DNA from: Candidatus Aenigmatarchaeota archaeon
GTDB taxonomy: Archaea; Aenigmatarchaeota; Aenigmatarchaeia; QMZP01; QMZT01
Length of the DNA stretch: 64,000 nt
Assembly: GCA_016932735.1 (NCBI GenBank)
Contig: JAFGCI010000006.1
Coordinates: 36,167 to 100,166, forward strand
Direction of reading: 5' to 3'
Within the stretch, counting starts at the first letter, position 1. Every line of letters starts with the position of its first letter. Under the pieces are notes generated by a model that was not told the origin of the DNA, did no database searches, and saw only the letters and a program-made list of their open reading frames with translations. The position numbers and the translations under genes were made by a program. Positions 4,016 to 45,694 of the stretch are shown in pieces.

Positions 4016-4591
4016 TCAATATCTCACAATATTCACTTCTTTTCCTGAAAGATCAAAAACTCTCGACGGGAGGCCGTCAATCTCGCCGGCATCTATTGCT
4101 ATATCTGTCAGAGCCTTTATATCTTCCGGAAGCTCGCTTATCTTCTTTATCGGCTCTTCGCCGGAAAGGTTCGCGGAAGTGGTTACAAATGGTATTCCGG
4201 TTGTCCGGACAAGGTCTGTGAATTTGTTCAGCGGTATCCGGATTCCTATGGTTTTCTGTAATGAGACGAGTTCTTTCGGGGCTGAAGGCGTTGCCTTAAG
4301 TATCACTGTATAAGGTCCCGGAAGGAGTGATTTTACGAAAGCGAGATTCTCTTTCGTTCCCGTCGCGTTTTCCTCAATCCAGTCAAATGATGGAGCTATG
4401 ACTGACATCGGCTTTCCGGGGTCTCTCCCCTTTGCGTTCTTGATTCTCGAAACAGAGCCGGAATTGTTAGCATCGCATCCTATTCCGTAAACCGTGTCCG
4501 TCGGATAGACGAAAACCTTTCCGGCTTTTACCGACTCTATGATGTAATCCTTTTTAGAACCAAGGGCGTCACTGAGCCTTATTATTTCCAT
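4016..4591 (-). CDS. L-threonylcarbamoyladenylate synthase (TsaC/Sua5/YrdC family)
   Basis: The 'VFVYPTDTVYGIGCDA' motif and overall YrdC-domain pattern; 191 aa. Confidence 0.8.
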   Translation of the reverse strand: MEIIRLSDALGSKKDYIIESVKAGKVFVYPTDTVYGIGCDANNSGSVSRIKNAKGRDPGKPMSVIAPSFDWIEENATGTKENLAFVKSLLPGPYTVILKATPSAPKELVSLQKTIGIRIPLNKFTDLVRTTGIPFVTTSANLSGEEPIKKISELPEDIKALTDIAIDAGEIDGLPSRVFDLSGKEVNIVRY

Positions 4592-4641
4592 AATGTTATA
4601 TTGTCGATTCAGTATTTATTTATCAAATCGAATCTGATATT

Positions 4642-5673
4642 ATGTTTAATTTTATGCAGAGGCAGAAACGCCTAAAGGAAAGCATGAAGGAAGCCGGACT
4701 AGATTGTCTTATAGTTTCTGACAGAAAGGACATTTATTACCAGACAGGCTTCCTTCCGCTTGACGGCGATTTCGCTTTTCTTATATTCACCACAGAAAAA
4801 AGGCCGGAACTCTTCGTAAATCCGGTTTCCAACAGGGCGGAGAGCCTGAAAACAGCCGATACATGTTTCGTAAAGGATGTAAAAGAGATGGTCGGTAATG
4901 CAGGCTTATCGGGAACAATAGGATTCGATGAGAAGAGTTTGTCTGTCTCATCTTTTATGGATATATCAAAGCACCTGAGAAAGCATCGCCTGAAAAAGCC
5001 GTGCTCAGATTTAATCAGGTCGCAGAGAGCGGTAAAAGATGAAAGCGAAATATCGGAAATGGGAAATGCCGTGGCAGTTACTGAAAAGATTCTTTCCGAT
5101 GCCAGAGGCTATATGGAAGGAAAAAGAGAATTCAATATCGCGAAAAAAATCGAGAAGTCCATGCTCGAAAAACTCATGGAGAGATCCTTTGAGACCATCG
5201 TCGCTTCAGGAAAGAACTCATCTCTCATACATTACATTCCGGGCAAAGGTCTTATCGGGCAGAAGAGTCTTGTTGTCATTGACATGGGGATTATTTCCAA
5301 TAACTATTGCTCTGACATGACGAGAACATTTTGTCTGAAGCCCGGCCCGAAGGAGCAGAAGCTCCATGATAATATTCTTGAGGTTCAGGAAACTCTTATT
5401 GACAGAATCCATGAAGGCGTCCGCGTAGAGGAAATCAATAGAATCTATCAGGAAGAAATGGCAAAAAAAGGATATGCTGTCAATCATGGCTGGGGACATT
5501 CCATCGGACTGGACGTCCATGACCCCGGCTTTAAGGAATTCAGGAAGGGGATGGTCATAACAGTCGAGCCGGGCGCATACATCAAAGGGTTCGGAGGCTG
5601 TCGCATCGAGGATATGATTCTTGTTGGGAAGGCTAAAAGTAAGAAAATGACGAAAATGAAGAGTTCGCTTTAG
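4642..5673 (+). CDS. M24 family metallopeptidase (Xaa-Pro dipeptidase/aminopeptidase-like)
   Basis: Pita-bread fold signatures 'HGWGHSIGLDVHDPG', 'GMVITVEPGAYI' and 'GGCRIEDMILV'. Confidence 0.8.
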   Translation: MFNFMQRQKRLKESMKEAGLDCLIVSDRKDIYYQTGFLPLDGDFAFLIFTTEKRPELFVNPVSNRAESLKTADTCFVKDVKEMVGNAGLSGTIGFDEKSLSVSSFMDISKHLRKHRLKKPCSDLIRSQRAVKDESEISEMGNAVAVTEKILSDARGYMEGKREFNIAKKIEKSMLEKLMERSFETIVASGKNSSLIHYIPGKGLIGQKSLVVIDMGIISNNYCSDMTRTFCLKPGPKEQKLHDNILEVQETLIDRIHEGVRVEEINRIYQEEMAKKGYAVNHGWGHSIGLDVHDPGFKEFRKGMVITVEPGAYIKGFGGCRIEDMILVGKAKSKKMTKMKSSL

Positions 5674-5677
5674 AGTG

Positions 5678-6499
5678 TCAGAATCTCTGAAAGTATTTTA
5701 CAAGCTCATTTGCGAATTCCCTTTTTTTATCCGGAAAGGCATGAGTCCCATCAAATTCAATCGTTTTGACATTTGCCCCGAATTCTTCTAGTCTTCTGGA
5801 AAGCAGCCTTGAGTTGTGTATAGTCATTATTTCATCGCCTTTCGCCGAGATTGTAAGAACATTAAGTCCTGTCAAATCTGGCTCCATATCACTAAAGGGC
5901 GTCTGCATCGACATAAGATTAATTAGGCTGCTTGCAATCTGGTAATATCCTTCTCCTCTAAGGTCGTTATACCCGAAAACTGGCTTCAGTACGTTGCCAT
6001 CGAGAAAAAACCCTTTGCCGTTTTTGCTGTTATGAAGTTCCGGATGCTTGAAAGGTCTCTGAAACATGTTCAGAAGCCCCTTACGGATATCGGTTCCTCC
6101 GCATCCTATAGCCATGCAGGATATATAGTCCTTTATTTGTTCTGCAACTCTTGCCATTGGATAACTGCTCAGGCTGATTGCAGCAAACATTCTCTTTTTT
6201 CTTTCGGGGTTTCTTCTTGCATATCCAATCAGCTGTTCTTCATGGACTATGTGATCATATCTCCTGATGGGGTGGCGGCCATGCCCCGGCAGGAATATAT
6301 AAGTCACTCCTATTCCTTCTCTGTTTGCTGTTTCATGTAAATACTGAAAAGTTTCTTTTTGTGGGTTTTCCAGATCGTTTCCCACGCCTGCAGAAAAGAC
6401 TATCTCTGAATCATTATTTCCGTATCTTATGAAAGGGACTTCGTATCTTCTGGATTTTCTTCCGACTGAATATGTCCCTTCGGCTGCCTGTAAACTCAT
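5678..6499 (-). CDS. hypothetical protein (273 aa)
   Basis: Long ORF with coding-like composition. No family recognised from the sequence. Confidence 0.5.
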   Translation of the reverse strand: MSLQAAEGTYSVGRKSRRYEVPFIRYGNNDSEIVFSAGVGNDLENPQKETFQYLHETANREGIGVTYIFLPGHGRHPIRRYDHIVHEEQLIGYARRNPERKKRMFAAISLSSYPMARVAEQIKDYISCMAIGCGGTDIRKGLLNMFQRPFKHPELHNSKNGKGFFLDGNVLKPVFGYNDLRGEGYYQIASSLINLMSMQTPFSDMEPDLTGLNVLTISAKGDEIMTIHNSRLLSRRLEEFGANVKTIEFDGTHAFPDKKREFANELVKYFQRF

Positions 6500-6523
6500 A
6501 AGATTCTAATGAAAGAAAATTAT

Positions 6524-7351
6524 TTATTCAAGTATTACACGGTCAATCTTTGCGACTTGTGACTTGGTTTTTCCTAAACCTGAGAATTTGACTGATGAAG
6601 AACCTATCCCAACTATGCTTCCTTCGATTGCGAAGAAAACATTATCTCCCTTCTTTATTCCTGAATCGAAATCGCTGACATAATCCCCGATTATCGGTTT
6701 CCCGTTTCTTACGTCCTGCCCGTTTTCTTTTTTTATCGAAATCCTTTTTACCCCGACCTTCAGGAGGACATCCTCTATCTCAAGAAGATGAGCTTCAGGC
6801 TCCTTCTCCAGCCTTTCAAGCGTGACGGCCTCATCGACGCTGAATGGTCCTACTCCCGTCCTCCTGAGCCATGACATCTGCGCTCCGCTTCCGGCCTTTT
6901 CGCCCATGTCGTGGCAGATTTTTCTGATGTATGTTCCGGCCTCGCAGAGAATCCGGAAGGAAACCAATCTTCCGTTAGTTTCAAGGATTTCAAAGGAACG
7001 GACGATCCTTTCCCTTTCCTTTCTTGCGACTGCCGATTTCACAGGCGGAATCTGCTTTATTTTTCCGGTGAACTGTTTTGCAAGTTCTTTTACAGAATCT
7101 TCTGAAATATCTTCATGAAAAAGCATCTCGCCTTCATACTCCTTGTCCATTCCATTAAGGAGGGGCATACACTTCCTCGCTTCACCAAGAGCTATAAGAA
7201 GGAGTCCTGTGACGTTTGGGTCAAGCGTTCCTGCATGACCTGCCTTTTCTATTCCCAGAATTCTCGTGACTGATTCGACTACATCGAATGATGTCGGGCC
7301 TGCTGGTTTGTCTATTAGGACGACGGACTTTTGTAAATTCGCCATAACCAT
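6524..7351 (-). CDS. cbf5: tRNA/rRNA pseudouridine synthase Cbf5 (TruB family, with PUA domain)
   Basis: The 'GHAGTLDPNVTGLL' catalytic motif, N-terminal 'IDKPAGPTSFDVV' and a C-terminal PUA-like region. Confidence 0.85.
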   Translation of the reverse strand: MVMANLQKSVVLIDKPAGPTSFDVVESVTRILGIEKAGHAGTLDPNVTGLLLIALGEARKCMPLLNGMDKEYEGEMLFHEDISEDSVKELAKQFTGKIKQIPPVKSAVARKERERIVRSFEILETNGRLVSFRILCEAGTYIRKICHDMGEKAGSGAQMSWLRRTGVGPFSVDEAVTLERLEKEPEAHLLEIEDVLLKVGVKRISIKKENGQDVRNGKPIIGDYVSDFDSGIKKGDNVFFAIEGSIVGIGSSSVKFSGLGKTKSQVAKIDRVILE

Positions 7352-11958: not shown

Positions 11959-12411
11959 TCAGTCTCCGTGCAGGACTATCAGTGACTGTGTATTATCTAT
12001 CCCTTCTATCAGCTGAATCCTCTCCAGAAGTATCCTGTCATATTCCTCGACGTCCTTCGCCCTGACGAAAGCAATTATATCGGTTCCTCCCGAGACTATG
12101 TGAACCTTTTCGACATTTGGGATTCTGTTCAGCTCTTTCACCACATCATACTGGCTCATGTGTTTTTCTTTCAGGACCCGAAGGTTTGCCGAGATCAGAA
12201 TGTAAGCTGAGAATCCCCTGCCGGTTTTTTTGCTGTCAATATCAATCGTATATTTCCTTATCACACCCTCCTTTCTCAGAGACTTTATCCTGTTATGGAT
12301 TGTAGTCGGCGGAAGAAGGGTCTTCTTCGAAATCTGCCTTGTCGTGAATTCGCCATGCTCCTTTAAGACTTCAAGAATCTTCCTGTCCTTTTCATCTATT
12401 CTATATTCCAT
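11959..12411 (-). CDS. Lrp/AsnC family transcriptional regulator
   Basis: N-terminal HTH 'IDEKDRKILEVLKEHGEFTTRQISKKTLLPPTTIHNRIKSLRKEGVI' and a C-terminal RAM domain. Start set at the internal Met (MEYRIDEKD). Confidence 0.8.
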   Translation of the reverse strand: MEYRIDEKDRKILEVLKEHGEFTTRQISKKTLLPPTTIHNRIKSLRKEGVIRKYTIDIDSKKTGRGFSAYILISANLRVLKEKHMSQYDVVKELNRIPNVEKVHIVSGGTDIIAFVRAKDVEEYDRILLERIQLIEGIDNTQSLIVLHGD

Positions 12412-12516
12412 AATGGAATATATGTTCCATAATTTATTTAAATCTAACACGAAATGGAACTATTGTCCATATTTTATGGAATATGTTTATCTAATATACC
12501 GGATAATAACCTTCTC

Positions 12517-13047
12517 ATGTTCAGACTGCACCCGGAACAGGGTTATGTTCATGAGATTGCGGGCACGTATGAAATCAAGACTGATATGAGGTATCATACA
12601 GTTCCGACCAAAACATGCGACGAGAAGGCAGCCTTGCTGGGCTGGCCTTCCAGCCGTGTCGTTAAAGCACTTTATCTTTGTGATGGGAATGGTTATATTG
12701 GTTTAGTGACGCCTGAAACAGGACAGCCTATAGACTTCAGGGCTGTTCTCGCTGAAGGCCTCGGGATCACAAAGAACAAGGCAGGCAGATACAGGTTCAA
12801 CGGAACCCCGGCGGGAATGACATACGGGACCTGCACCCCTTTCATACTTGAATCAAGCGCGGGAAAACAGGTTTCTAAAATAATCATTGCCGACCCGTTC
12901 AGCCTGAAAGATACTGTTGTTGACATATCCGTCGGCGGGGAAACCGATGATGCATTCCTGACATCCATGCACATTCCATACGATGCCATACATGAGATAC
13001 TTTACAGGAAGTTCGGAGAGGGTTTTGTGAAAAAACAAGAGCAGTAA
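12517..13047 (+). CDS. YbaK/ProX-like aminoacyl-tRNA deacylase domain protein (tentative)
   Basis: Pattern resembles YbaK ('GTPAGMTYGTCTPF', 'IIIADPFS', 'DISVGGETD'). Start uncertain; the ORF track begins at 12454. Confidence 0.45.
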   Translation: MFRLHPEQGYVHEIAGTYEIKTDMRYHTVPTKTCDEKAALLGWPSSRVVKALYLCDGNGYIGLVTPETGQPIDFRAVLAEGLGITKNKAGRYRFNGTPAGMTYGTCTPFILESSAGKQVSKIIIADPFSLKDTVVDISVGGETDDAFLTSMHIPYDAIHEILYRKFGEGFVKKQEQ

Positions 13048-13116
13048 AACTTACTCTTTCTTACCTATTTCTCTAATTATATTTTCAAAAATCCAAATGT
13101 TTATAAAGGTGCTAGA

Positions 13117-13164
13117 ACAACAATATATTGTTAAATTCTGGGGGGAAGACACAACATATTGTGT
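13117..13164. promoter_or_regulatory. two tandem NrdR-box-like palindromes upstream of nrdR-nrdD
   Basis: The first box is acaacaatatattgtt at 13117-13132; it contains the perfect 14-bp palindrome aacaatatattgtt. The second is acacaacatattgtgt at 13149-13164. The second matches 15/16 of the consensus acaCwAtATaTwGtgt as I remember it. The box centres are 32 bp apart. An archaeal TATA-like tttataaa sits at 13100-13108. Confidence 0.6.
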
Positions 13165-13207
13165 TTTTTCATTCCTAAGTAACACAAATCATTTTTCTGG
13201 TGTTAGC

Positions 13208-13672
13208 ATGAAGTGTCCATATTGTTCCAGTCAGGAATCGAAGGTCGTTGACAAGAGAACTTCCGAGACTTCTGATGCTATCAGAAGACGAAGAGAATGC
13301 CTGAAATGCGAGAATCGGTTCACTACTTTTGAGCGCGTTGAAAGGGGAGACCTCCGCGTCGTCAAAAAGGACGGAAGAAGGGAGCAGTTCGACCGCCAGA
13401 AACTCCTTGCAGGAATTAACAAGGCATGCGAAAAACGACCGGTGACGGCGGAGCAGATTGATGATATTGTTGATAAGATTGAAGCCGACCTCAGGAAGAA
13501 GGGGGAACAGGAAATACCAACCACAACAATCGGCAACACTATAATGAAGCATCTCAAGAAGCTGGATAAGGTCGCATACATCAGGTTCGCTTCTGTCTAC
13601 AAGGACTTCGCGGACCTTGAGGACTTCGGCCGCGAAGTCGATAAATTGATAAAAAGGCCTGCATCGCAGTAG
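13208..13672 (+). CDS. nrdR: transcriptional repressor NrdR (zinc ribbon + ATP-cone)
   Basis: 'MKCPYCSSQESKVVDKR...CLKCENRFTTFERVE' zinc ribbon followed by an ATP-cone ('VVKKDGRREQFDRQKLLAGINKAC'). Start taken at the internal ATG at 13208 (MKCPYC). Confidence 0.85.
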   Translation: MKCPYCSSQESKVVDKRTSETSDAIRRRRECLKCENRFTTFERVERGDLRVVKKDGRREQFDRQKLLAGINKACEKRPVTAEQIDDIVDKIEADLRKKGEQEIPTTTIGNTIMKHLKKLDKVAYIRFASVYKDFADLEDFGREVDKLIKRPASQ

Positions 13673-13682
13673 CGATCGGGGA

Positions 13683-15791
13683 TTGGAATTGAGATTAAAT
13701 AAGAGAAAATACATTGAGAGGGAGAGGAAAATGGGACTTGAAAAAATCAAGAAAAGGGACGACAGGATTGTTAAATTCGATAATGATAAAATAAAGAACG
13801 CGATAATGAAGGCTGTCAAGGCGGTCGGCGGCAAGGACGAGAAATCCGCCGAACAGCTTGCAACCCAGGTCATAACGCTTCTTAAGAGAAAATTCAGGGA
13901 CCAGATTCCTTCTGTTGAAGATGTCCAGGACATGGTCGAGAAGGTCCTGATAGAGAACGGCCATGCAAAAACGGCGAAGGCTTTCATACTATACAGGGAG
14001 CAGAGAGCCGCTGTCAGGGATGTCAAGAAGCTTTTATCGGACACTGAGATTGTTGATGATTACCTCAAGGAAACGGACTGGCAGGTCAGGGAGAACTCTA
14101 ACATGAGCTACTCTCTTCAGGGATTGAACTCCCATCTGTCATCCCAGATAATATCAAATTACTGGATGAGCAAGTTATATCCGAGGGAAATTCAGGAAGC
14201 CCACAGGACAGGGGATTTCCACATTCATGACCTCGGCGTCCTCGGCGCATACTGCGTCGGGTGGGACCTCCGCGACCTTCTCATTTCAGGATTCAAGGGA
14301 GTCCGCGGAAAGATTGAGTGCAGGCCGCCCAAACATTTCCGCGTGGCGCTTGGGCAGATTGTGAATTTCTTTTATACACTGCAGGGAGAAGCCGCGGGAG
14401 CGCAGGCTTTCTCGAACTTCGATACATATCTTTCGCCTTTCATCAGGGCGGACAACCTTGATTTTAAGCAGGTCAAACAGACACTCCAGGAATTTATCTT
14501 CAACATAAACGTCCCTACCAGAGTTGGATTCCAGACACCTTTCACCAACATAACGCTTGATCTGATCGTCCCCGCTAACATAAAAGATGATGCAGTGATA
14601 ATCGGCGGGAAGATGACCGAGACGACCTATGGGGACTATCAGAAAGAGATGGACGTCTTCAATGAGGCCTTTGCCGAGGTCATGATGGAAGGAGACGCCT
14701 CCGGAAGGGTCTTCACATTTCCCATACCGACTTACAACATCACAAAGGACTTCGACTGGGACAGCCCCAAGTACAAGGGCATTTGGGAAATGACTGCAAA
14801 ATACGGAATACCGTATTTCTCGAACTTCATAAATTCCGACATGAAGCCGGAGGATGCAAGGTCTATGTGCTGCCGCCTCAGGCTTGACAACAGGGAACTG
14901 CGAAAAAGGGGCGGAGGCTTATTCGGAGCCAACCCATTAACAGGCTCAATCGGCGTCGTGACAATAAACATGCCGAGGCTCGGTTTCCTTTCAAGGAACG
15001 AGAAAGAATTCTTCGCAAGGCTCGACAGCCTCATGGACCTTGCAAAGGAGAGCCTTGAGATAAAGAGGAAAATAATAGAGAGCTTCACTGACAAGGGCCT
15101 TTATCCATACTCAAAATTCTACCTGAGGGCGACAAAGGATGCGACCGGGTCCTACTGGACTAACCATTTCTCGACAATCGGTCTGGTCGGCCTGAACGAG
15201 GCCGTCATGAATTTCATGGATGCTAACATCGCAGATGAGAATGCAAGGAAATTCGCCATCAAAGTGCTTGAGTACATGAGAGAAAGAATATCGGGTTATC
15301 AGGAGGCGACAGGCCATATATACAATCTGGAGGCTACGCCGGGAGAAGGAACTTCCCACAGGCTTGCAAGGCTCGATAAGAAGCTCCATCCTGAAATTGT
15401 CGTTGCCAATGAATACAATGTAAGGAAGTTTGGAGCTGCTCCTTACTATACGAACTCAAGCCAGCTTCCTGTCAATTACACGGATGACATTTTCACAGCG
15501 CTTGACCTGCAGGAAGAGCTTCAGACAAAATACACAGGAGGGACGGTCCTCCACGGTTTTGTCGGGGAGAGAATGCCGTCGCCTGAGGCAACGAAGATGC
15601 TCGTGAAAAAGATTGCGGAGAACTACAAGATACCGTACTTTACGATAACGCCGACATTCTCGATATGTCCGAAGCACGGATATCTTGCAGGCGAGCACAA
15701 GTTTTGTCCGAAGTGCGACGAAGAGATTGGATATGTGAAAAAACCGGTTGCTGCCAGCGAGCCCGTCAGGGCAGTGGCAGAAGTCAAATAA
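13683..15791 (+). CDS. nrdD: anaerobic ribonucleoside-triphosphate reductase (class III, NrdD) large part, lacking the glycyl-radical motif
   Basis: N-terminal ATP-cone (KRDDRIVKFDNDKIKNAIMKAV), a central class III core (CCRLRLD) and C-terminal Zn site 'CPKHGYLAGEHKFCPKC'. There is no RVxGY glycyl radical motif before the TAA at 15789-15791. Confidence 0.9.
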   Translation: MELRLNKRKYIERERKMGLEKIKKRDDRIVKFDNDKIKNAIMKAVKAVGGKDEKSAEQLATQVITLLKRKFRDQIPSVEDVQDMVEKVLIENGHAKTAKAFILYREQRAAVRDVKKLLSDTEIVDDYLKETDWQVRENSNMSYSLQGLNSHLSSQIISNYWMSKLYPREIQEAHRTGDFHIHDLGVLGAYCVGWDLRDLLISGFKGVRGKIECRPPKHFRVALGQIVNFFYTLQGEAAGAQAFSNFDTYLSPFIRADNLDFKQVKQTLQEFIFNINVPTRVGFQTPFTNITLDLIVPANIKDDAVIIGGKMTETTYGDYQKEMDVFNEAFAEVMMEGDASGRVFTFPIPTYNITKDFDWDSPKYKGIWEMTAKYGIPYFSNFINSDMKPEDARSMCCRLRLDNRELRKRGGGLFGANPLTGSIGVVTINMPRLGFLSRNEKEFFARLDSLMDLAKESLEIKRKIIESFTDKGLYPYSKFYLRATKDATGSYWTNHFSTIGLVGLNEAVMNFMDANIADENARKFAIKVLEYMRERISGYQEATGHIYNLEATPGEGTSHRLARLDKKLHPEIVVANEYNVRKFGAAPYYTNSSQLPVNYTDDIFTALDLQEELQTKYTGGTVLHGFVGERMPSPEATKMLVKKIAENYKIPYFTITPTFSICPKHGYLAGEHKFCPKCDEEIGYVKKPVAASEPVRAVAEVK

Positions 15792-15805
15792 GGCAAGGTG
15801 ATAAT

Positions 15806-15955
15806 ATGGAAAAAGAAATAACTGAAGAAATGAGAACTAAATGCGAGGTCTTCTCGCGTGTTGTCGGTTACTTAAGGCCGGTCGACCAGTGGCACGACGG
15901 CAAGCAGGCAGAGTTCAGTGACAGAGTGACCTTTGATAAGCAGATAGAGAAGTGA
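15806..15955 (+). CDS. stand-alone NrdD C-terminal glycyl-radical domain (49 aa)
   Basis: MEKEITEEMRTKCEVFSRVVGYLRPVDQWHDGKQAEFSDRVTF contains the glycyl radical motif RVVGY and the NrdD C-terminal pattern N/D-x-G-K-x-x-E-x-x-D-R-V. It has its own SD (aaggtga) and ATG 14 nt after the nrdD stop, in a different frame. Confidence 0.6.
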   Translation: MEKEITEEMRTKCEVFSRVVGYLRPVDQWHDGKQAEFSDRVTFDKQIEK

Positions 15956-15960
15956 CTCTA

Positions 15961-16647
15961 ATGAATATCGGGGGGTTTGTCAAGAACACGCTAATAGACT
16001 ATCCGGGAAAGATGTCGTGCATCATATTCACACAGGGATGTTCTTTCCGCTGTCCCTTCTGCCAGAACAAAGAGCTGGTTGACGTCCCCGATGATGCAGA
16101 ATCCATAAAGGAGTCATACATCTTTTCATTTCTCAAAAAAAGAAAAGGCTTGCTTGATGCGGTTGTAATAACCGGAGGAGAGCCGACACTTCAAAAAGAC
16201 CTTCCCGATTTCATAAGGAAAGTCAGGGAGCTTGGATTTCTCATCAAGCTCGATACCAACGGATGGGCTCCTGAAATTCTTGAAAGGTTGTTAAAAGAGA
16301 ACCTAATCGATTTTGTTGCAATGGACATCAAGGCTTCAAAGGATAATTATGAGAAGGCGGCAGGCGTCAAAGTAAATATATATAATATAGAGAAGTCAAT
16401 CCGCCTTATACGTTCATCAGGACTCCCATACGAATTCAGGACGACTGTCGTCCCCGGAATCCACGATAAAGACGACATCAGGAAAATGGCTCAGTGGATT
16501 GAAGGCTCAAACCTCTTCCTGCAGAAGTTCGTCCCTCAGAACACGCTTGACCCCGAATACGAAAAGAAGAATCCATTCACTAACAAGGAAATGGAAGAGA
16601 TGAAAAAGATTGCGGGGCAGTTTGTGAATTGTGGGCTGAGAGCTTAA
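15961..16647 (+). CDS. nrdG: anaerobic RNR activating enzyme NrdG (radical SAM)
   Basis: The 'GCSFRCPFCQN' CxxxCxxC cluster and 'VVITGGEPTLQ'. An alternative GTG start at 15952 overlaps the stop of the preceding small ORF. Confidence 0.8.
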   Translation: MNIGGFVKNTLIDYPGKMSCIIFTQGCSFRCPFCQNKELVDVPDDAESIKESYIFSFLKKRKGLLDAVVITGGEPTLQKDLPDFIRKVRELGFLIKLDTNGWAPEILERLLKENLIDFVAMDIKASKDNYEKAAGVKVNIYNIEKSIRLIRSSGLPYEFRTTVVPGIHDKDDIRKMAQWIEGSNLFLQKFVPQNTLDPEYEKKNPFTNKEMEEMKKIAGQFVNCGLRA

Positions 16648-23219: not shown

Positions 23220-24701
23220 GTGTACGGGATGCCATATATCGATATAATTGACTCTTTCTACAAGGAGAGGGGATGGGTAAAATTCCAGATTGAATCTTTT
23301 AATAATTTCATTGATTTCGGGCTTCAGAAAATCATCAATGAGGTCGGAACGATAAACATAGGACAGGAAGGTCTTGAAGACTTCAAGATAAGGTTCGGGA
23401 AAGTCACTGTCGGGAAGCCGGCGATAAAGGAAGCGGACGGTTCCGTAAGGATGATATACCCTAACGAGGTCAGGACAAGAAGCCTGACATACATAGCTCC
23501 GGTCCATGTCGAGATTATCCCTATTTTCAACGGCGTCCAGGAGAGGAGCGAGACTGTCCATATAGGCGATCTTCCAATCATGATAAAGTCGAAGCTCTGC
23601 AACATCACGAACCTCACTGAGAATGAGCTTGTCAAATACGGCGAGGATCCTTCCGACCCGGGCGGGTATTTCATTATAAACGGCACGGAAAGAGTCCTTA
23701 TTCTGATTGAGGAGATTGCATCGAACAAGCCCATATTCGAAAAGACCGAAGACGACGGGGCCATTAAGGTCAGAGTCAATTCGCAAAGAAGCGGATTCAA
23801 GCAGAGGCATCTGGTCGAGATGACGAATTACGGCGAGATAACGATTTCCTTTGCCAATATACACAAGCTTCCCATTGTTGTTCTGTTAAAATCGCTCGGT
23901 GTTGAAACCGATAAAGACATTTGTTCTATGATTTCTTCCGATGAAAAGATGCTGAATGCATTTTATGTGAATCTATATGAAACCAATGTCATAAGCATGG
24001 CCGAAGCCGTGGATTTCATAGGAAGGAAGCTGAAGATATCCGAGGATTACAGGGTTGAGAGGGTCAGCCAGATTCTCGACCGTTACCTGCTTCCGCATCT
24101 GGGACAGGATCCTGCGGATAGGTTAAGGAAGGCCAAATACCTTTCAAGAATAATTAAGAGGACTATCAAGGTCCAGATGGGCGATGCTCCGAGGGATGAC
24201 ATAGACCATTATTCCAACAAGAGGCTGCTAATGTCCGGAAATCTTCTGGAAAACCTTTTCCGTTCCATCCTTTTAGGAAGGTGGGGCCTGATAGCAAAGA
24301 TGACTTACAACTATCAGAAGCTTATCAAAAGAGGGAAAATCCCGTCTCTGCAGTCTATAATTGAAGCTAATACGGTAACGAAGCAGATACTTTCATCGCT
24401 AGCGACGGGAAACTGGATAGGAGGCCTTACAGGCGTTTCACAAAGGCTTGACAGAGGCTCCCACAGGAAGACCGTCTCCCATCTGAGGTCGGTGGTATCG
24501 CCGCTGACAACAACCCAGGAGCATTTCAGGGCGCGTCAGATTCATCCGACAGAGTGGGGACGACTTTGCCCGGCCGAGACGCCGGAAGGTTCTTCAATCG
24601 GACTGAGAAAGCATCTTGCTTTATTGAGCGAGATAACCCCCGGTTTATCGATTGAAGAGGAAAGGGGCATAATGAAGCTTGTCGAGGGCAAGTGCAGTTA
24701 A
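23220..24701 (+). CDS. rpoB2: RNA polymerase subunit B'' (N-terminal part of split RpoB)
   Basis: Shows the conserved N-terminal RpoB/Rpb2 regions. It sits immediately upstream of B'. Confidence 0.9.
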   Translation: MYGMPYIDIIDSFYKERGWVKFQIESFNNFIDFGLQKIINEVGTINIGQEGLEDFKIRFGKVTVGKPAIKEADGSVRMIYPNEVRTRSLTYIAPVHVEIIPIFNGVQERSETVHIGDLPIMIKSKLCNITNLTENELVKYGEDPSDPGGYFIINGTERVLILIEEIASNKPIFEKTEDDGAIKVRVNSQRSGFKQRHLVEMTNYGEITISFANIHKLPIVVLLKSLGVETDKDICSMISSDEKMLNAFYVNLYETNVISMAEAVDFIGRKLKISEDYRVERVSQILDRYLLPHLGQDPADRLRKAKYLSRIIKRTIKVQMGDAPRDDIDHYSNKRLLMSGNLLENLFRSILLGRWGLIAKMTYNYQKLIKRGKIPSLQSIIEANTVTKQILSSLATGNWIGGLTGVSQRLDRGSHRKTVSHLRSVVSPLTTTQEHFRARQIHPTEWGRLCPAETPEGSSIGLRKHLALLSEITPGLSIEEERGIMKLVEGKCS

Positions 24702-24707
24702 GGTGTT

Positions 24708-26522
24708 ATGATGACAGCAAAGAAAGAGCAGGAAAGAGCTGACGTTTATACCAACGGAATCTTCATAGGGGAAACAATAAAGCCTCTTGAGCTTGTGGAA
24801 GAGATAAGGAAAAAGAGAAGATTCAACATCATATCCTCCCAGATTAATGTGGCTTACTTCCCTGAAACAGAAGAGATAAGAATAAATACCGATTCGGGCA
24901 GGGCCAGAAGGCCTGTTGTTATTGTTGAAAATAAAAAACCGAAGCTTACCGACGAGCATATCAAGAAACTGCAGTCTGGTGAGATTGGGTGGTCATACCT
25001 GATTGAACATGGCATAGTTGAATATCTCGATGCTGAAGAGGAAGAAAATTCCTGCATTGCGATGAACCCTGATGGGGTAGAAAAGAACCACACACATGTT
25101 GAAATCCACCCTTCCATAATGCTCGGAACATCCGCCAATCTCATACCCTTCGCGGAATTCAACCGTGGCGACCGTGTAAACTACGGAGCCAAGATGGTGG
25201 GGCAGTCCATCGGAATGTTTACCAACAACTTCCTTGTAAGGACCGATACAAAATTCAACATACTCACATATCCGCAGGGGCCTCTGGTGACGACAAAAAT
25301 AGACAACATAATGGAAGAACATCCATACGGACAGAATATTGTCATTGCTGTAATGTCATGGGACGGTTACAACCTTAACGATGCTGTTGTGCTGAACAAG
25401 TCTTCAATTGACAGGGGCATGTTCAGGTCATTCTATTTCAGAACATATGAAACCCTCAAGAAAAAATACTGGGGAGGCCAGGAGGATACCATTGGAATCC
25501 CCGAGCCAGGAATAAGAGGTCATAGAGGCGATTCGGCTTATACAGAGCTGGATGTGGATGGTCTCATAAACCCGGAGACTGTGGTAAGTTCAGATGATGT
25601 GCTTATAGGAAAGACATCACCCCTGAGATTCCTTTCCAGCGAGGACATGATGAGCGACATCGAGAACAAGAGGGAATCGTCGCTGACCGTCAGGTATGGC
25701 GAGAAAGGCATTGTCGATGGCGTCTTCATGAGCGAAACAGTTGATGGTAACCAGATGTTCAAGATAAAGATAAGGGATGAAAGGATACCGGAACTGGGCG
25801 ACAAGTTCGCCACAAGGCACGGCCAGAAGGGTGTTGTTTCCCTCGTTGTTCCGGGAGAAGATATGCCTTATACCAGAGATGGCGTTGTTCCTGATTTAAT
25901 ATTCAATCCGCACGGCATTCCTTCAAGAATGACCGTCGGGCAGCTGCTCGAAATAATAGGCGGCAAGGCCGCGGCCCTTCAGGGCGAGAAGGTTGAAGCA
26001 TCAATCTTCAATGCAACGAAAGAGGAAGACATAAGAAAAGCGCTTGAGAAATTCGGTTTCAGGAATGACGGCAAGGAAATACTTTATGATGGAAGGACCG
26101 GAAGGAAGTACGAGGTCATGATATATACCGGTATGGCATTCTATATGAAACTTGACCATATGGTCGCCAACAAGATACAGACAAGGGGACGCGGCCCGGT
26201 TGCTCTTCTCACGAAACAGCCAACAGAAGGCCGTTCGAAGAAGGGCGGTTTGAGATTAGGAGAGATGGAGCAGCAGTGTCTGATGGCGCATGGCGCATCA
26301 CTCACTTTGAATGAAAGATTCAACTCCGATATGGTCTCCCTGCCGATATGCGCTAAATGTGGATTGCTGGCAATACACGACGAGATAAAGAACAAGAGCC
26401 ATTGTCCGGTGTGCAAGGAAGCCGACATCATATGGGTCAACACATCATTTGCATTCAAGCTTATGCTTGAAGAGATGAAATCCATGATGATATACCCGAG
26501 ACTCGGGGTTGAGGAGATTTGA
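24708..26522 (+). CDS. rpoB1: RNA polymerase subunit B' (C-terminal part of split RpoB)
   Basis: Contains 'GDKFATRHGQKGVVS' and 'NPHGIPSRMTVGQLLE' plus a C-terminal Zn-binding CPVC. Confidence 0.9.
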   Translation: MMTAKKEQERADVYTNGIFIGETIKPLELVEEIRKKRRFNIISSQINVAYFPETEEIRINTDSGRARRPVVIVENKKPKLTDEHIKKLQSGEIGWSYLIEHGIVEYLDAEEEENSCIAMNPDGVEKNHTHVEIHPSIMLGTSANLIPFAEFNRGDRVNYGAKMVGQSIGMFTNNFLVRTDTKFNILTYPQGPLVTTKIDNIMEEHPYGQNIVIAVMSWDGYNLNDAVVLNKSSIDRGMFRSFYFRTYETLKKKYWGGQEDTIGIPEPGIRGHRGDSAYTELDVDGLINPETVVSSDDVLIGKTSPLRFLSSEDMMSDIENKRESSLTVRYGEKGIVDGVFMSETVDGNQMFKIKIRDERIPELGDKFATRHGQKGVVSLVVPGEDMPYTRDGVVPDLIFNPHGIPSRMTVGQLLEIIGGKAAALQGEKVEASIFNATKEEDIRKALEKFGFRNDGKEILYDGRTGRKYEVMIYTGMAFYMKLDHMVANKIQTRGRGPVALLTKQPTEGRSKKGGLRLGEMEQQCLMAHGASLTLNERFNSDMVSLPICAKCGLLAIHDEIKNKSHCPVCKEADIIWVNTSFAFKLMLEEMKSMMIYPRLGVEEI

Positions 26523-26578: not shown

Positions 26579-29074
26579 ATGACAAGTAATATTAATTCAC
26601 TGGAATTCGGAATACTAAACCCCGAAATGGTCAGGCAGATGGCAACGATACGCATAGTTACATCTGATCTTTACGATGCTGACGGCTACCCGGTTGATGG
26701 CGGTGTAATGGATTCAAGGATGGGTGTCATTGACCCCGGAATGAGATGCAGGACATGCGGCGGCAACATTGACCAGTGCAAAGGTCATTTCGGCTATCTG
26801 GAGCTTGCAAAGCCTGTTGTTCATGTTTTATTTATCAAGGTCGTTTACAGCCTGATAAAGTGCACCTGCCAGAAATGCGGCAGAATCCTTACGAAATCAG
26901 AGAAGATCGGCCTTGAGAAGCTTGCAAAGAACATCCCTGCAAAATGCCCTTACTGCGATGCGCAGCAGAAAAAGGTTGTTTTTATCAAGCCGTACACGTT
27001 CAATCTGGGAAAAGATGAATTCGATTCAGAGAAAGTCAGGGAGATGTTTGAGAAAATACCGGACGAGGATCTGAAAAAAATCAAGTTCAGAGGCGGAAGG
27101 CCTGAATGGCTAGTGCTCACTCTTCTGCCGGTTTCGCCTGTCAATACAAGACCGTCAATTACGCTGGAAACGGGTGAAAGGTCCGAAGACGATCTTACAC
27201 ACAAGCTTGTCGACATTGTCAGGATAAACCAGTCACTCAGGGAGAACATAGACATAGGCGCTCCCGAATTCATTATCAACGATTTATGGGAACTTGTGCA
27301 GTATCATGTTTCAACCCTTTTTGATAACGAGCTTACGGGAATACCACAGGCACGGCATAGGTCGGGAAGGCCTTTGAGAGGGATGATACAGCGTCTGAAA
27401 GGCAAGGAAGGAAGAATAAGGGGAAATCTTCTCGGTAAGAGAGTCAACTTCTCAGCAAGGACTGTCATTTCACCTGATCCCATGCTTTCGGTAAATGAGG
27501 TAGGGGTTCCCGAAGAAGTTGCCAGCGAACTGACTATACCTGAGCATGTCACACCACTGAATATTGAGGTGGTAAAGAATATGATACTCACCGGCAAGGT
27601 TAATTACGTCCTGAGGCCGGATGGAAGAAAGATTAAAGTCACTGACGATAACAGGAATGACCTGATAAGGCTCATTGACAAAGGATGGATTATCGAGAGG
27701 AAGTTAAAAGATGGCGATGTGGTTCTTTTCAACAGACAGCCTTCGCTTCACAAGGTTTCAATAATGGCTCATTATGCTGTAGTCATGCCTTACAAGACTT
27801 TCAGGATGAATCCCTCGGTCTGCCCGCCATACAATGCAGATTTCGATGGGGACGAAATGAACCTCCATGCCCTGCAGACGCAGGAAGCAAGGACTGAAGC
27901 CTCCCTGCTGATGGATGTCAAGCATAACATAATATCACCGAAATTCGGAGGATCCCTTGTCGGCTTGGATCTGGACCAAGTTACAGGAATTTATATGCTT
28001 ACGAAAAACGGCGTGGAGTTTACACCTGAAGAGGCTGCAGACATGCTGGCAAGCGCCGGCATCGACGCCGAGCTTCCCAATAAAAAGAAAATAACAGGGA
28101 AGGATCTTGCAAGCATTCCCATCCCGAAAGAAATAAATATGAAATTTAAGGCCAATATATGCAGGCAGTGCGCAAAATGCGTCGGAGAGGATTGCAAGAA
28201 TGAGGGAATGGTTGTTATAAAGAAAGGCCAGCTGATATCAGGTGTCCTTGACAAGACGGCTATCGGCGCTTTTAAGGGAAAGATAATCAACAAGATAAAC
28301 ACGCTTGGTGACGACGAGCAGCTCAAGAATTTCATTGACGTTATGGGAAGGCTCGGGACTGCATATCTCATGAAGAGAGGCCTCACCATTGGTATTTCTG
28401 ATATAGATCTTTCGAAAAGCGTTATGAACGATATCCAGAAAGATATACAGGACGCTGTCAGTAAAGCCAACAAGCTCATTTCCAAGTATAATGAAGGGAG
28501 CATAAGGGCACTTCCGGGAATGACTGCCAAAGAGTCTCTCGAGGCACAGATGCTCAACACTCTTGCAGGTGGTCTGAACGAAGTCAGCAAGATAGTCGTG
28601 AAGAACATCTCATACAGTGATATTATCGCGATGACAGAATCCGGGGCAAAGGGGTCCAATATCAACACGACCCAGATGGCGGCATGCGTAGGTTCGGAGA
28701 CCATCCTCGGTGAAAGGATACAGAGAGGGTACATGGGCAGGACTCTTCCCCATTTCGAAGTGGGCGATTTGTCTGCCGCATCGCATGGTTTTGTAGCCCG
28801 CGGTTTTAAGGAAGGTCTTCTTCCGTATGAGTTCTTCTGGAACCTCATGAACGGAAGGGAAGGACTTATGGATAAGTCACTGAGGACAAGGAAATCCGGT
28901 TACATGCAAAGACGTCTTATAAACTCTCTTCAGGATCTCAAGGTCTTTGATGACATGACTGTAAGGGGTTCCAACGGGGAGATTATCCAGTTCTTTGCAG
29001 GCGAAGACGGAATAGACCCGTCCAAGTCGGACTGGGGCAAGCTGGAGTGGCAGAATTATATTACGGTTGGATGA
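26579..29074 (+). CDS. rpoA1: RNA polymerase subunit A' (RpoA1)
   Basis: N-terminal Zn motifs and the catalytic '[13 protein letters not shown]' motif. Confidence 0.9.
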
Positions 29075-30503
29075 TGTTATGATGAAGTTACCGGAAAAGA
29101 TTGAACAGCAGGTTGAGGAATTCGCCAAAGAGAAGAAAATGACTCCTGATAAGAAGAAGAAGCTTCATGAAGAGGTCATGACGGCGTACAAAATGATGCT
29201 CTATTCACCTGAAGAGGCTATAGGCATCATAGCGGCCCAGTCTTTATCTGAGCCTGCCACGCAGATGACAATGCGAACATACCACTTTGCAGGTACTGCA
29301 GGTATACAGGTCACGCTCGGTCTGCCGAGGATTCTTGAGATATTCGATGCCAAAAAGGAACCAGAAACCCCCGCAATGACTATTTATATTGACAAGAAAC
29401 ACCAAACAGAACCCAAAGTTACCCATATAGCGGAGATGATTAAGGAAGTCAAGCTGAAGGATGTCGTCACAACAAGCATCATGGATGTCATAAACATGGT
29501 AGTAAAGTTCAGGCTGAACGATGAGAAAATCAAGAGGCTCGAAATAGATATCAAGAAGGTGTCATCCAAGATAAAAATCAAGAACATTGAAATAGGAGTT
29601 CAGGGAAAGGACCTCGTTGTGACTTCAAAGAAGGAAAATATAAACATCCACAAGCTCAGGTACAAGATACTTGAGAGCCATGTAAGCGGCATCAAAAACA
29701 TATCACAGGTCATAATTCAGAAAGATGAATTCGACGAATGGGTCATACATACCTTAGGTTCGAACCTGAAGAAGGTATGCGAGATAGAAGGCGTAGATGG
29801 AACAAGAACTACGACGAACAATATATTCGAAATCAAGGAAGTATTCGGTATAGAAGCCGCAAGGAACGCCATAATAAAGGAGGCAATGCACACCATAGAA
29901 GAGCAGGGCCTTGGTGTTGATATAAGGTATGTCATGCTTCTTGCGGACATAATGACATTCAATGAAAAGATAATGGGCATCGGCAGGTATGGCATTGCCG
30001 GGCACAAGCATTCAATAATCGCTAGGGCTTCCTTCGAGGAAACAAAGAAACATCTTATTGATGCGGCTGTCAAGGGTCTGAAAGACGACCTTTCCGGCTC
30101 AGTCGAGAATATAATAATGAACAAAGTCGCTCCCATGGGAACAGGAAGCTTCACGCTCATAGGCAGTCTTCCAAAGGTCCCTTCCGAAATCAAAAAGGAG
30201 TACGAGAAGATTGAAAAGGAAATGACAAAAAGAAGGGAAGAGGTTGAGGCTGAAAGGCTGAAGGTTCTGGAAGAACAGAAGCAGGCCGAAAAGGTTGCTG
30301 AAGAACCAAAAGCTGAACTCCTCACAGAAGAACCGAAGACAGAAAAACAGAAAGAGGAGAAGGCAGCCAAAAAGACTGAAAAGAAGGCAAAGGTTGGGGA
30401 GAAGACCAAGAAGGAGCCAAAGACAAGAATTGCTAAGAAAAAACCGGCTACAGAAAAAGCCAAGAAGTCTGCTTCTTCTGAAACGAAAAAGAAAAAGAAA
30501 TAA
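29067..30503 (+). CDS. rpoA2: RNA polymerase subunit A'' (RpoA2) with about 110-aa K/E-rich C-terminal extension
   Basis: A''/Rpb1 C-terminal homology ('[24 protein letters not shown]', '[18 protein letters not shown]'). The tail after about residue 370 is lysine/glutamate-rich low complexity ending in KKKKK. Confidence 0.85.
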
Positions 30504-43476: not shown

Positions 43477-44046
43477 TCAATTCTTCTGATGCTTTTCGGG
43501 GTCCTCTCTTCCCCACGGTTCTTTTGATCCATTATCTCCTGTTCTTATGATCCTAACATGAACATATATTGCATCTAAATCGGCTGGCGTTTCGTTACCT
43601 TTGAGCTTCCGTGTATACATTCTTCCCTCTTCAATCCTGCCTCCCCTGACTGTTATTTCATATCCATGCTTCAAAGGGTATGTCGCTCTATCGAAAAGTT
43701 TTCTACCTAACATCATTGTCGTTATTCTCTTTGGATCTATTATATCTCCTTCCCTGCATACATATCCTACCGAATCGTCAATTTCGCAGGAAACTGATGA
43801 AGTTGAGCCTTGATGCATGAATCTTTTTGATGATTCGGTATCAATTCCATTATAATCAAGAATTGATATTACCGGTATTGTTACTTCTCTTTTTTCACCT
43901 TCACTAAAAAATCCTGCCTGATATGTCTTTTTTCTTCTGGGAGAATTAGGATCCACAGAAAGGTTTGTATATAAAGAAGGAAAACTCAAGACTCCCTGAC
44001 CTATTATTGAAAAACCTGAATCTTCTTTTGTGTAATCATCAATCAT
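43477..44046 (-). CDS. hypothetical protein (189 aa)
   Basis: ORF only. Confidence 0.4.
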   Translation of the reverse strand: MIDDYTKEDSGFSIIGQGVLSFPSLYTNLSVDPNSPRRKKTYQAGFFSEGEKREVTIPVISILDYNGIDTESSKRFMHQGSTSSVSCEIDDSVGYVCREGDIIDPKRITTMMLGRKLFDRATYPLKHGYEITVRGGRIEEGRMYTRKLKGNETPADLDAIYVHVRIIRTGDNGSKEPWGREDPEKHQKN

Positions 44047-44149
44047 GGAAAAATATTGAGATTTATCTTTAAATAATTATCACTTTAAAATAACAACATA
44101 TATTGTAAATTTATTCTCAAAGATAAAAACCTCCCTTACCATCTTTCAA

Positions 44150-45694
44150 ATGATTGGTATGAAGAAAGTAATGCTCATTATACGGGATGGATGGGGTCAC
44201 GGTGAACATGATGCAGGAAACGCGATATTCAAGGCAAACACCCCCAGTCATGATTTCTACAAGAAGAATTATCCGACAACAGTCCTGCAGTGCACGGGTA
44301 ACGCCGTCGGGAACCCGGAAGGCGTTCAGGGAGGCTCGGAAGTCGGGCACCTGACAATCGGCGCCGGACGTATTGTATGGCAGCCTTACGAACTGATAAA
44401 CCAGGAAATAAAGAACGGCAACTTCTTCAAAAACAACATTCTTATTGATGCGATAGAACACGCAAAAAGTAATGGAACGGATTTGCATATTGCAGGTTTG
44501 TTTTCAGACCAGGGCGTCCATGCCGACTACAGGCACATGTCAGCATTTCTCGAGCTATGCAAACAACAGTCATTCGACAATGTCTTCATACATCTGATTC
44601 TTGACGGGAGAGACGTTCCCGAAAAATCGGCGATGAAATTCCTGACAGCTTTCGAGGAAGACATTGAGAGGATAGGGATAGGAAAGATTGCGACGGTTGT
44701 CGGCAGGTACTATTCAATGGACAGGGACAAGAACTGGGACAGGACTCTGAAAGGATATAATCTTATGGTAAATGGCGATGGTTTCGCTGCGGAATCCGCA
44801 AAAGAGGCTATAGAAAAAGCTTATGAGCGCGGTGATAAGACAGACTACTACGTCCAGCCGACCGTAATTGTAGACCAGTCCGGAAACCACGTTGGTCTCA
44901 TCAAAGAAAACGACTCATTCATATTCTACAACTTCAGAAGCGACAGAGCAAGGCAGATTACTGCTATGATGACAGGCCTCGATTATTGCCCGCAGAAACC
45001 GGAACATTTTGTAAATGTTTATTATACATGCTTCTGCAGATATGAGCCTTCGTGGACACTTCCCGTAGCGTTTCCGCAGCACAAAGTGCTAAACAATCTC
45101 GGGCAGATAATAAGCGGGAACAAGCTCCGCCAGTTAAGGATTGCGGAAACGGAAAAGTATGCCCATGTCACATTCTTCTTCAACAGCCAGGACGAAGAGC
45201 CGTATGAGAATGAGGACAGGATAATGGTCCCTTCTCCGAAAGTTTCAAGCTACGACCAGAAGCCGGAAATGTCTGCTTACGAAGTGACTGAAAAGCTTCT
45301 GGAAAAAATTGGCGAATATGATTTCATTGCAGTCAATTACGCGAATCCGGACCTTGTCGGCCATTCCGGTGTCTTTTCAGCGGTCGTAAAAGCCTGCGAA
45401 GTCGTTGACGAATGCGTCGGAAATGTTGTTAAGAAAGCGTTAGAAAATGATTATACAATCCTTCTCATGGCAGACCATGGCAATGCAGACCACATGCTTC
45501 ATGAAGACGGCTCAAAAGACCCGTCACATGGTCTTAACCCGGTTCTTATGACGCTCATCTCAAATGATAAAAAACTGAAGACTGTGAAGCTGAAAGAAGG
45601 CAGAGGTCTTCAGGATATAGCTCCCACAATTCTCGGTATAATTGGAATAGAGAAGCCAAAAGAGATGACGGGGGAGAGTTTGATTATTAAATAA
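44150..45694 (+). CDS. gpmI: 2,3-bisphosphoglycerate-independent phosphoglycerate mutase, bacterial GpmI type
   Basis: 514 aa with 'RDGWGHG', 'SEVGHLTIGAGR', 'ANPDLVGHSG' and 'ADHGNAD' motifs of the alkaline-phosphatase-fold iPGM. Confidence 0.9.
   Translation: MIGMKKVMLIIRDGWGHGEHDAGNAIFKANTPSHDFYKKNYPTTVLQCTGNAVGNPEGVQGGSEVGHLTIGAGRIVWQPYELINQEIKNGNFFKNNILIDAIEHAKSNGTDLHIAGLFSDQGVHADYRHMSAFLELCKQQSFDNVFIHLILDGRDVPEKSAMKFLTAFEEDIERIGIGKIATVVGRYYSMDRDKNWDRTLKGYNLMVNGDGFAAESAKEAIEKAYERGDKTDYYVQPTVIVDQSGNHVGLIKENDSFIFYNFRSDRARQITAMMTGLDYCPQKPEHFVNVYYTCFCRYEPSWTLPVAFPQHKVLNNLGQIISGNKLRQLRIAETEKYAHVTFFFNSQDEEPYENEDRIMVPSPKVSSYDQKPEMSAYEVTEKLLEKIGEYDFIAVNYANPDLVGHSGVFSAVVKACEVVDECVGNVVKKALENDYTILLMADHGNADHMLHEDGSKDPSHGLNPVLMTLISNDKKLKTVKLKEGRGLQDIAPTILGIIGIEKPKEMTGESLIIK

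Follow-up and report, generated by a model that had tools for sequence, protein, structure and literature searches.

In a DPANN-type archaeon, an operon with the gene order nrdR-nrdD(large)-nrdD(small)-nrdG is headed by two tandem NrdR boxes, which probably constitute the operator through which it is autoregulated. This reading is founded on the observed sites, their statistical significance, conservation and position, the identities of the genes and the archaeal host, all of which were studied in a single 64-kb stretch of DNA (hereafter the window) and at related loci. The features of the operon, its promoter and the RNA polymerase genes are collected in Table 1.

Table 1. Coordinates of the operon, its promoter elements and the RNA polymerase genes in the window.
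Feature	Position	Strand	Basis and remarks
BRE-like purine-rich stretch ccaaatg	13093-13099	+	Read directly; putative in function; adjoins the TATA box upstream
TATA box TTTATAAA of the nrdR operon promoter	13100-13107	+	8/8 match to TTTAWAWA
NrdR box 1 (distal), CAACAATATATTGTTA	13118-13133	.	C4, A6, A8, T9, T11 and G13 complete
Linker, 15 bp, non-conserved	13134-13148	.	Read directly
NrdR box 2 (proximal), ACACAACATATTGTGT	13149-13164	.	Score 21/22; one mismatch to ACACWATATATWGTGT
Shine-Dalgarno-like GGTG	13199-13202	+	Read directly; putative; 5 nt before the nrdR ATG
nrdR, 154 aa, Zn-ribbon and ATP-cone	13208-13672	+	Pfam Zn_ribbon_NrdR PF22811, ATP-cone PF03477; TIGR00244 equivalog, 200 bits (cut-off 124.65)
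nrdD large ORF, 686 aa, ATP-cone (residues 5-93), class III RNR barrel and Zn site	13731-15791	+	Pfam ATP-cone, NRDD
49-aa ORF with glycyl-radical motif RVVGYLRP	15806-15955	+	Other frame; own Shine-Dalgarno sequence GGTGAT and ATG
nrdG, radical-SAM activase	15952-16647 (GTG 15952 or ATG 15961)	+	Pfam Radical_SAM, Fer4_12
Split rpoB'' and rpoB'	23220-26522		Rpb2-type domain sets
Split rpoA' and rpoA''	26579-30503		Rpb1-type domain sets

The original prediction described two palindromes with centres 32 bp apart. A direct reading of positions 12800-13700 finds its two strings, acaacaatatattgtt and acacaacatattgtgt, where it had placed them, at 13117-13132 and 13149-13164 respectively, but the distance needs correction. 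The true palindrome of box 1, aacaatatattgtt, is perfect over 14 bp (13119-13132) and has its axis at 13125.5, and the proper 16-mer of this box is therefore the one at 13118-13133 and not the one at 13117-13132. The palindrome of box 2 is partial, with 6-bp arms (ACACAA and TTGTGT) flanking an asymmetric CATA. With box 1 thus re-registered, the centres at 13125.5 and 13156.5 are separated by 31 bp, or about three helical turns; distances of 31 and 32 bp are both canonical for pairs of NrdR boxes. The six positions reported as highly conserved in NrdR boxes, namely C4, A6, A8, T9, T11 and G13 (PMC13584703), are all found in both boxes, and the linker has a length in the range of 15-16 bp that predominates in the literature (PMC13584703, PMC12051234). 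The assignment of the palindromes to the NrdR type by sequence and spacing thus holds, as does their placement in front of nrdR, since the gene whose ATG (13208) lies 43 bp downstream of box 2 is identified as NrdR by a curated equivalog model. The pair accordingly displays the conserved positions, the linker, the location in the promoter of an RNR operon and the conservation at orthologous promoters that mark tandem NrdR boxes.

Across the full 64 kb, the strict consensus ACACWATATATWGTGT with up to three mismatches has box 2 as its sole match, and the core ACWATATATWGT with at most one mismatch matches only the two boxes (0.33 matches expected; two matches in 4 of 100 shuffles). The permissive regular expression of a published survey (PMC12051234), C.[AT].A[AT].[AT].G with a spacer of 20-23 nt, yields 5 pairs in the window versus 4.05 expected from shuffles; as it cannot support the claim, we used a weighted pair score instead. 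Here, 16-mers are compared with the consensus, the six conserved positions receive double weight, and the scores of two 16-mers with centres 30-33 bp apart are summed. The box pair scores 39 of a possible 44, compared with 30 for the runner-up among real pairs in the 64 kb, and with maxima in 500 dinucleotide-preserving shuffles that average 30.1 (sd 1.05) and reach 34 at the most. The pair is unique in the window as a strong pair and far above chance. Two other candidates were discarded. One, a palindrome at 44091-44108 (TAACAACATATATTGTAA; score 17/22), has its ACAA and TTGT half-sites 6 bp rather than 4 bp apart and has no partner box, and so it is not an NrdR box; it sits between divergent genes, one at 43477-44046 on the minus strand and a phosphoglycerate mutase gene at 44150. 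The other, a would-be third box at 13182 (ACACAAATCATTTTTC), matches in the left half-site only and is not conserved in the relatives.

Comparable pairs recur at related loci. Of 80 loci encoding relatives of NrdR, 32 belong to records with archaeal titles. A pair with a score of 35 or more is found in the 200 bp preceding nrdR at 18 of these 32 archaeal (DPANN) loci; five more have pairs with scores of 32-34, and nine have none (best score 30 or less). The archaeal boxes give the logo acACaAtATaTTGTgt, with T11 and G13 present in 38 of 38 boxes, and the distance between centres, measured in 19 archaeal loci, is 32 bp in 12 of them, 31 bp in five and 33 bp in two. Because the selection of these boxes relied on the bacterial consensus, the logo has some circularity, which is offset by a consensus-free search for enriched 7-mers in the 150-nt regions that precede archaeal nrdR genes. 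Its top word is the half-site AACACAA, found in 18 of 31 loci versus 0.9 expected, and ACAATAT, another half-site word of the NrdR box, is found in 19 loci versus 1.4 expected; the enrichment of the half-site words is 14-22 fold with no use of the consensus. TATA words rank next (GTTTAAA in 10 loci versus 1.15 expected). The nrdR gene with its boxes heads class III operons in 14 loci, and in seven further loci a scan of the downstream gene revealed class II-type RNR-barrel genes (L007, L026, L034, L041, L050 and L080) or a divergent nrdD (L023). Box pairs are likewise present upstream of nrdR in five further archaeal loci that were reached via the small NrdD ORF discussed below. Two loci, L084 and L085, carry three NrdR-like boxes in series (ATACAATATATTGT, CACTATATGTAGTGT and ATTCTATATATAGTGT) approximately 40-100 nt upstream of nrdR; a three-box arrangement has been reported at the nrdJ gene of Thermotoga maritima (PMC13584703).

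The product of the first gene has the attributes of a bona fide NrdR: it exceeds the cut-off of the family model, combines the Zn-ribbon with the ATP-cone and keeps the residues that contact DNA and nucleotides. Compared with solved NrdR structures it gives E-values of 1e-44 to 1e-35, and no gap interrupts residues 1-150 in the alignment to the best match, 9fzf, presumed from its sequence to be E. coli NrdR. Its CxxC motifs lie at positions 3-6 (C3/C6) and 31-34 (C31/C34). It further retains D15, R17, the RRRR stretch at 26-29 and R37, which contact DNA in the cryo-EM structure of Streptomyces coelicolor NrdR, as well as the ATP-cone residues K53, E59 and K65, which bind nucleotides in E. coli NrdR (PMC9110341). 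The genes for the reductase and its activase follow in the same direction, as had been predicted, and the Pfam and NCBIfam models support this gene order. The large NrdD ORF aligns with NF006126 over profile positions 3-668 of 684 with 1079.8 bits, and the adjacent activase matches TIGR02495, the NrdG2 equivalog, with 230.8 bits (cut-off 131.15). The genes are closely spaced, with 58 nt, then 14 nt and finally either an overlap or 5 nt separating them, which makes it likely that they form an operon.

The organization of the reductase gene itself departs from that of the family. The large ORF ends right after the CPKC of the Zn site and lacks the glycyl-radical motif, which is found instead, as KCEVFSRVVGYLRPVDQW, in the 49-aa ORF that follows; the latter matches positions 531-562 of Pfam NRDD and 644-683 of NF006126. 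Hence, the class III barrel and the C-terminal RVxGY do not stand on one polypeptide here: no part that the family has is missing, but the parts are shared out between two polypeptides. The gene is divided likewise in L001, L005, L017 and L019, through either a change of frame or a stop codon in frame (split regions: window, 15680-15955; L001, 6100-6445; L005, 6330-6660; L017, 7270-7520; L019, 6350-6660; L081-L085, 5001-5147), and the gene is unsplit in L015, L016 and L035. All 94 of the 94 homologues found of the small ORF are stand-alone, with lengths of 38-84 aa, and independent genomes share the order nrdR, large nrdD, 48-aa ORF, nrdG, with which the gene contexts in L081-L085 agree. Judged by these comparisons, the split is a recurrent gene architecture in DPANN and not a sequencing error, and the operon may encode a two-polypeptide class III RNR. 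Literature searches on split NrdD recovered no description of it. A split RNR is known from class II, namely the NrdJa/NrdJb of Pseudomonas aeruginosa, which is alike in being encoded as two polypeptides and differs in its class. The small piece is also reminiscent of GrcA/YfiD, a separately encoded small glycyl-radical peptide of pyruvate formate-lyase; however, GrcA/YfiD is a spare domain, whereas the 49-aa piece holds the sole copy of the radical motif and the split falls immediately after the Zn site. Several other RNR genes of the set are interrupted in their own ways. In L034, the class II reductase downstream of nrdR comprises two ORFs of 336 aa (4455-5465) and 586 aa (5553-7313), which recalls NrdJa/NrdJb; the nrdD genes of L010 (5359-6320) and L017 (5311-6230) contain insertions, seen as gaps of ~900 bp at residue ~270; and the class II nrdJ genes of L007 (4553-8041) and L041 (4444-8442) harbor inteins with LAGLIDADG endonuclease domains.

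The archaeal setting of the operon, another element of the original prediction, is borne out by the split rpoB''/B' and rpoA'/A'' genes that lie ~10 kb downstream on the same contig. Base composition is even across the window. The closest relatives of its NrdR come from metagenome-assembled genomes (MAGs) of uncultured archaea, Woesearchaeota, Nanoarchaeota, Pacearchaeota and Aenigmatarchaeota, with an identity of 89% to the best of them and 55-64% to the rest of the closest. The contig is archaeal and its host a DPANN-type archaeon.

The boxes are positioned on what, by its TATA octamer, purine-rich BRE-like stretch and accompanying archaeal RNA polymerase genes, is an archaeal BRE/TATA promoter. 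They do lie just downstream of a TATA-like element, as predicted, with a gap of 10 bp between it and box 1, although the octamer ends at 13107 and not at 13108. Of the 25 DPANN loci examined, 19 have a TATA octamer with 7-8 of 8 matches to TTTAWAWA that ends 10-26 bp before box 1. A BRE-like gAAAt often precedes this octamer; orthologous loci show (c)gAAAt(n) immediately 5' of TTTAWAWA. The gap to box 1 is 10-11 bp in the window, L001, L002 and L007, 17-19 bp in L004, L005, L015, L016 and L017, and 22-26 bp in several others; given this variation in distance, the boxes have no one conserved placement with respect to the pre-initiation complex. In none of the archaeal loci examined are the boxes upstream of the TATA box. 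Archaeal TATA boxes are usually centred near -26/-27, with transcription starting ~22-27 bp downstream of them. By this geometry, transcription is predicted to start at ~13128-13133, in the 3' half of box 1, and the operator would span ~-12 to +35 in the window and extend from ~-4 or +1 onwards in other loci. Scans of 12900-13800 returned sigma-70 promoters at chance level only, no terminator and no meaningful match in Rfam. Among the Chloroflexota, the sister bacterial sequences, L008 and L037 present a TTGACW -35 hexamer that abuts box 1 and a -10-like hexamer within the linker. Thus, the operator is common to both domains, and the core promoter in front of it differs.

Two further observations concern the surroundings of the boxes. 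Six loci conserve a GTAGTAA(A/C)A-like motif in what is presumed to be the 5' UTR, after box 2 and before the start codon; in the window it reads GTAACACAA (13179-13187). It lies 10-11 nt downstream of box 2 in L002, L004, L007 and L017 and 15 nt downstream in the window and L001, outside the NrdR box, and could serve as an initiator for a second promoter, as an element of the UTR or as a site of some other kind. The ORF that immediately precedes the promoter (197 aa; 12454-13047) has no Pfam or NCBIfam match and no counterpart in any related archaeal locus compared, including the closest relative, L001. As the promoter and operon of L001 are nearly identical to those of the window, synteny breaks exactly at the promoter.

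In the mechanism that we propose, the operon would be transcribed from the BRE/TATA promoter with a start inside box 1. When dATP rises relative to ATP, NrdR carrying both dATP and ATP would assemble into a tetramer. Its two pairs of Zn-ribbons would occupy the two boxes, which lie three helical turns from each other, and the DNA would be kinked. The complex would cover the predicted span of the operator, such that TBP and TFB could probably still reach the TATA box and the recruitment or escape of RNA polymerase would be blocked. A block of polymerase recruitment is also how MDR1, LrpA and Phr act, archaeal repressors whose sites lie downstream of the TATA box. On the present operon, such a block would lower the expression of the class III reductase, the activase and NrdR itself, amounting to negative feedback by dATP that would come on top of the ATP-cone on NrdD; with ATP alone, NrdR would form oligomers unable to bind DNA and the operon would be expressed. 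Binding and its dependence on nucleotides are here projected by homology from the NrdRs of S. coelicolor and E. coli, and repression, autoregulation and the step of initiation that is blocked are likewise predicted. In bacteria, ATP alone gives NrdR oligomers that do not bind DNA, dATP together with ATP gives a tetramer that sits on two boxes and kinks the DNA, and binding only with dATP and ATP has been demonstrated together with repression (PMC9110341).

We considered other ways in which this promoter could be organized. NrdR might bind the boxes yet compete with TBP, the AT-rich box cores being the real TATA element or elements and TTTATAAA being incidental. The cores AATATATT and ACATATTG (ATATAT) do resemble TATA boxes, and the GTAGTAA-like motif of the six loci lies ~19-31 nt downstream of the centre of box 2 (19-26 nt in L002, L004, L007 and L017; 23-31 nt in the window and L001), about where a start directed by box 2 as a TATA box would fall. 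We nevertheless consider such competition unlikely, for the canonical TTTAWAWA upstream of box 1 in those 19 of 25 loci is statistically enriched and often accompanied by the BRE-like gAAAt, and box 2 ends only 4-6 nt before the ATG in L015, L027, L034 and L057, which would put a start 26 nt past its centre inside the gene. A very improbable reading has the palindromes acting as RNA, that is, as hairpins of the 5' UTR or an attenuator rather than as a DNA operator. Both boxes are probably partly within the transcript, and box 2, which has six T in a row (TTTTTT) after it, can fold into a 6-bp stem. However, this T-run is not conserved across loci, neither a terminator-like site nor an Rfam family was found, and what is conserved is specific bases (C4, A6, A8, T9, T11 and G13), not pairing maintained by compensatory changes; moreover, the motif agrees with the DNA site established by experiment for the very protein that is encoded alongside it.

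Least probable are the readings that dispense with NrdR or with the archaeal host. That the boxes are chance palindromes in AT-rich intergenic DNA, or serve a different regulator, for example the Lrp/AsnC protein encoded at 11959-12450, might be entertained given that the permissive expression finds pairs at about the chance number. It is effectively refuted by a pair score that exceeds the maxima of all 500 shuffles, by the recurrence of such pairs upstream of nrdR in more than half (18/32) of the related archaeal loci, and by the lack of any counterpart in these loci of the gene just upstream (12454-13047). The operon could also be bacterial DNA with an ordinary bacterial promoter, mis-assembled or mis-binned into an archaeal contig, as NrdR is mainly bacterial and four bacterial-labelled sequences nest among the archaeal NrdRs. 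Yet the split archaeal rpoB and rpoA genes share the same 64-kb stretch, the composition is even, the sigma-70 scan stays at chance and the closest relatives are all archaeal MAGs. In independent loci, too, the operon has archaeal markers as neighbours, among them Trm56, the proteasome and a KH/beta-CASP nuclease, and contamination is effectively excluded. We accordingly retain the two boxes as a probable NrdR operator downstream of an archaeal TATA box.

As for its origin, the operon had been predicted to be an acquisition by transfer. In a crude neighbor-joining tree of the best 80 NrdR matches, with a sampling biased towards the query, the archaeal NrdRs group in a single clade, next to sequences from Chloroflexota. 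This tree fits a transfer into DPANN that happened long ago, with lengthy residence since then, and does not fit a recent acquisition by this genome; transfer as such is only loosely supported. Inside the archaeal clade are four NrdRs from MAGs labelled bacterial, namely L014, L018, L065 and L073 (Leptospirales, Spirochaetes, 'uncultured bacterium' and Gammaproteobacteria), which could reflect mis-binning or transfer out of archaea. Strong box pairs occur upstream of nrdR in L014, L018 and L065 (scores 36-39), but not in L073 (best score 30).

The share of genomes reported to encode NrdR is 77% among bacteria and 22% among archaea (PMC13584703), and by such counts NrdR is not rare in archaea. 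A preprint of 2025 presents it as having no archaeal orthologues, and a published survey of NrdR boxes covers bacterial genomes only (PMC12051234). Operons of the form nrdR-nrdA-nrdB or nrdR-nrdB-nrdA were described from haloarchaea in 2010 as transfers from bacteria (Lundin et al. 2010, PMC3019208). These are alike in having an archaeal nrdR as the first gene of an RNR operon read as transferred from bacteria, but they are class I operons of Halobacteria, some of them on plasmids, whereas the operons described here are class III (class II in relatives) and belong to DPANN, whose NrdRs form a clade of their own in our limited tree. In a literature search combining NrdR with DPANN lineage names, NrdR is mentioned in none of the 15 papers ranked best, and one combining NrdR with TATA returned no relevant paper. 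All mechanistic work on NrdR that we are aware of is bacterial, and we know of no experimental work on any archaeal NrdR.

The bacterial operators with which the present one is best compared, those of S. coelicolor nrdRJ and nrdAB and of E. coli nrdAB, nrdHIEF and nrdDG, share its 16-bp partly palindromic boxes, six conserved positions and 15-bp linker; S. coelicolor nrdRJ is further alike in having the boxes in the promoter of an RNR operon that starts with nrdR, and the bacterial proteins have the same DNA-contact residues in the Zn-ribbon and the same residues in the ATP-cone. The difference lies in the promoter: bacterial boxes overlie the -35 and -10 elements, whereas those described here lie wholly downstream of a TATA box, at a predicted ~-12 to +35, on a BRE/TATA promoter served by an Rpb1/Rpb2-type polymerase. 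In this regard, the closest parallels are MDR1 of Archaeoglobus and LrpA and Phr of Pyrococcus, whose operators also lie over the start, downstream of BRE/TATA, and for which a block of polymerase recruitment after TBP/TFB binding is what would be expected here as well. However, these repressors are helix-turn-helix proteins, as opposed to the Zn-ribbon and ATP-cone of NrdR with its oligomeric state set by ATP and dATP. As it is already established that archaea can have NrdR and that regulators of bacterial type can act on archaeal promoters, current views are not overturned; the promoter-level picture may be new in detail, yet it is as a specialist would expect.

A bolder pair of linked readings, which we put forward tentatively and regard as possible but rather doubtful when taken together, is that NrdR is a long-resident master regulator of dNTP supply across DPANN, governing class III and class II operons always from downstream of the TATA on a TBP/TFB promoter, and that the reductase is an undescribed two-polypeptide class III enzyme with its radical on a separately translated peptide of ~48 aa. 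If true, this would offer a natural system for learning how a nucleotide-sensing, DNA-kinking repressor of bacterial type stops a eukaryote-like polymerase, and the ~48-aa radical peptide could be cheaply replaced after cleavage by oxygen, as GrcA is for pyruvate formate-lyase. At the level of the operator itself, this locus and ~20 related ones provide a concrete and conserved operator layout on an archaeal promoter. Their sequences suggest that, besides the ATP-cone of the enzyme, many small-genome DPANN archaea would keep a predicted feedback on dNTP synthesis at the level of transcription.
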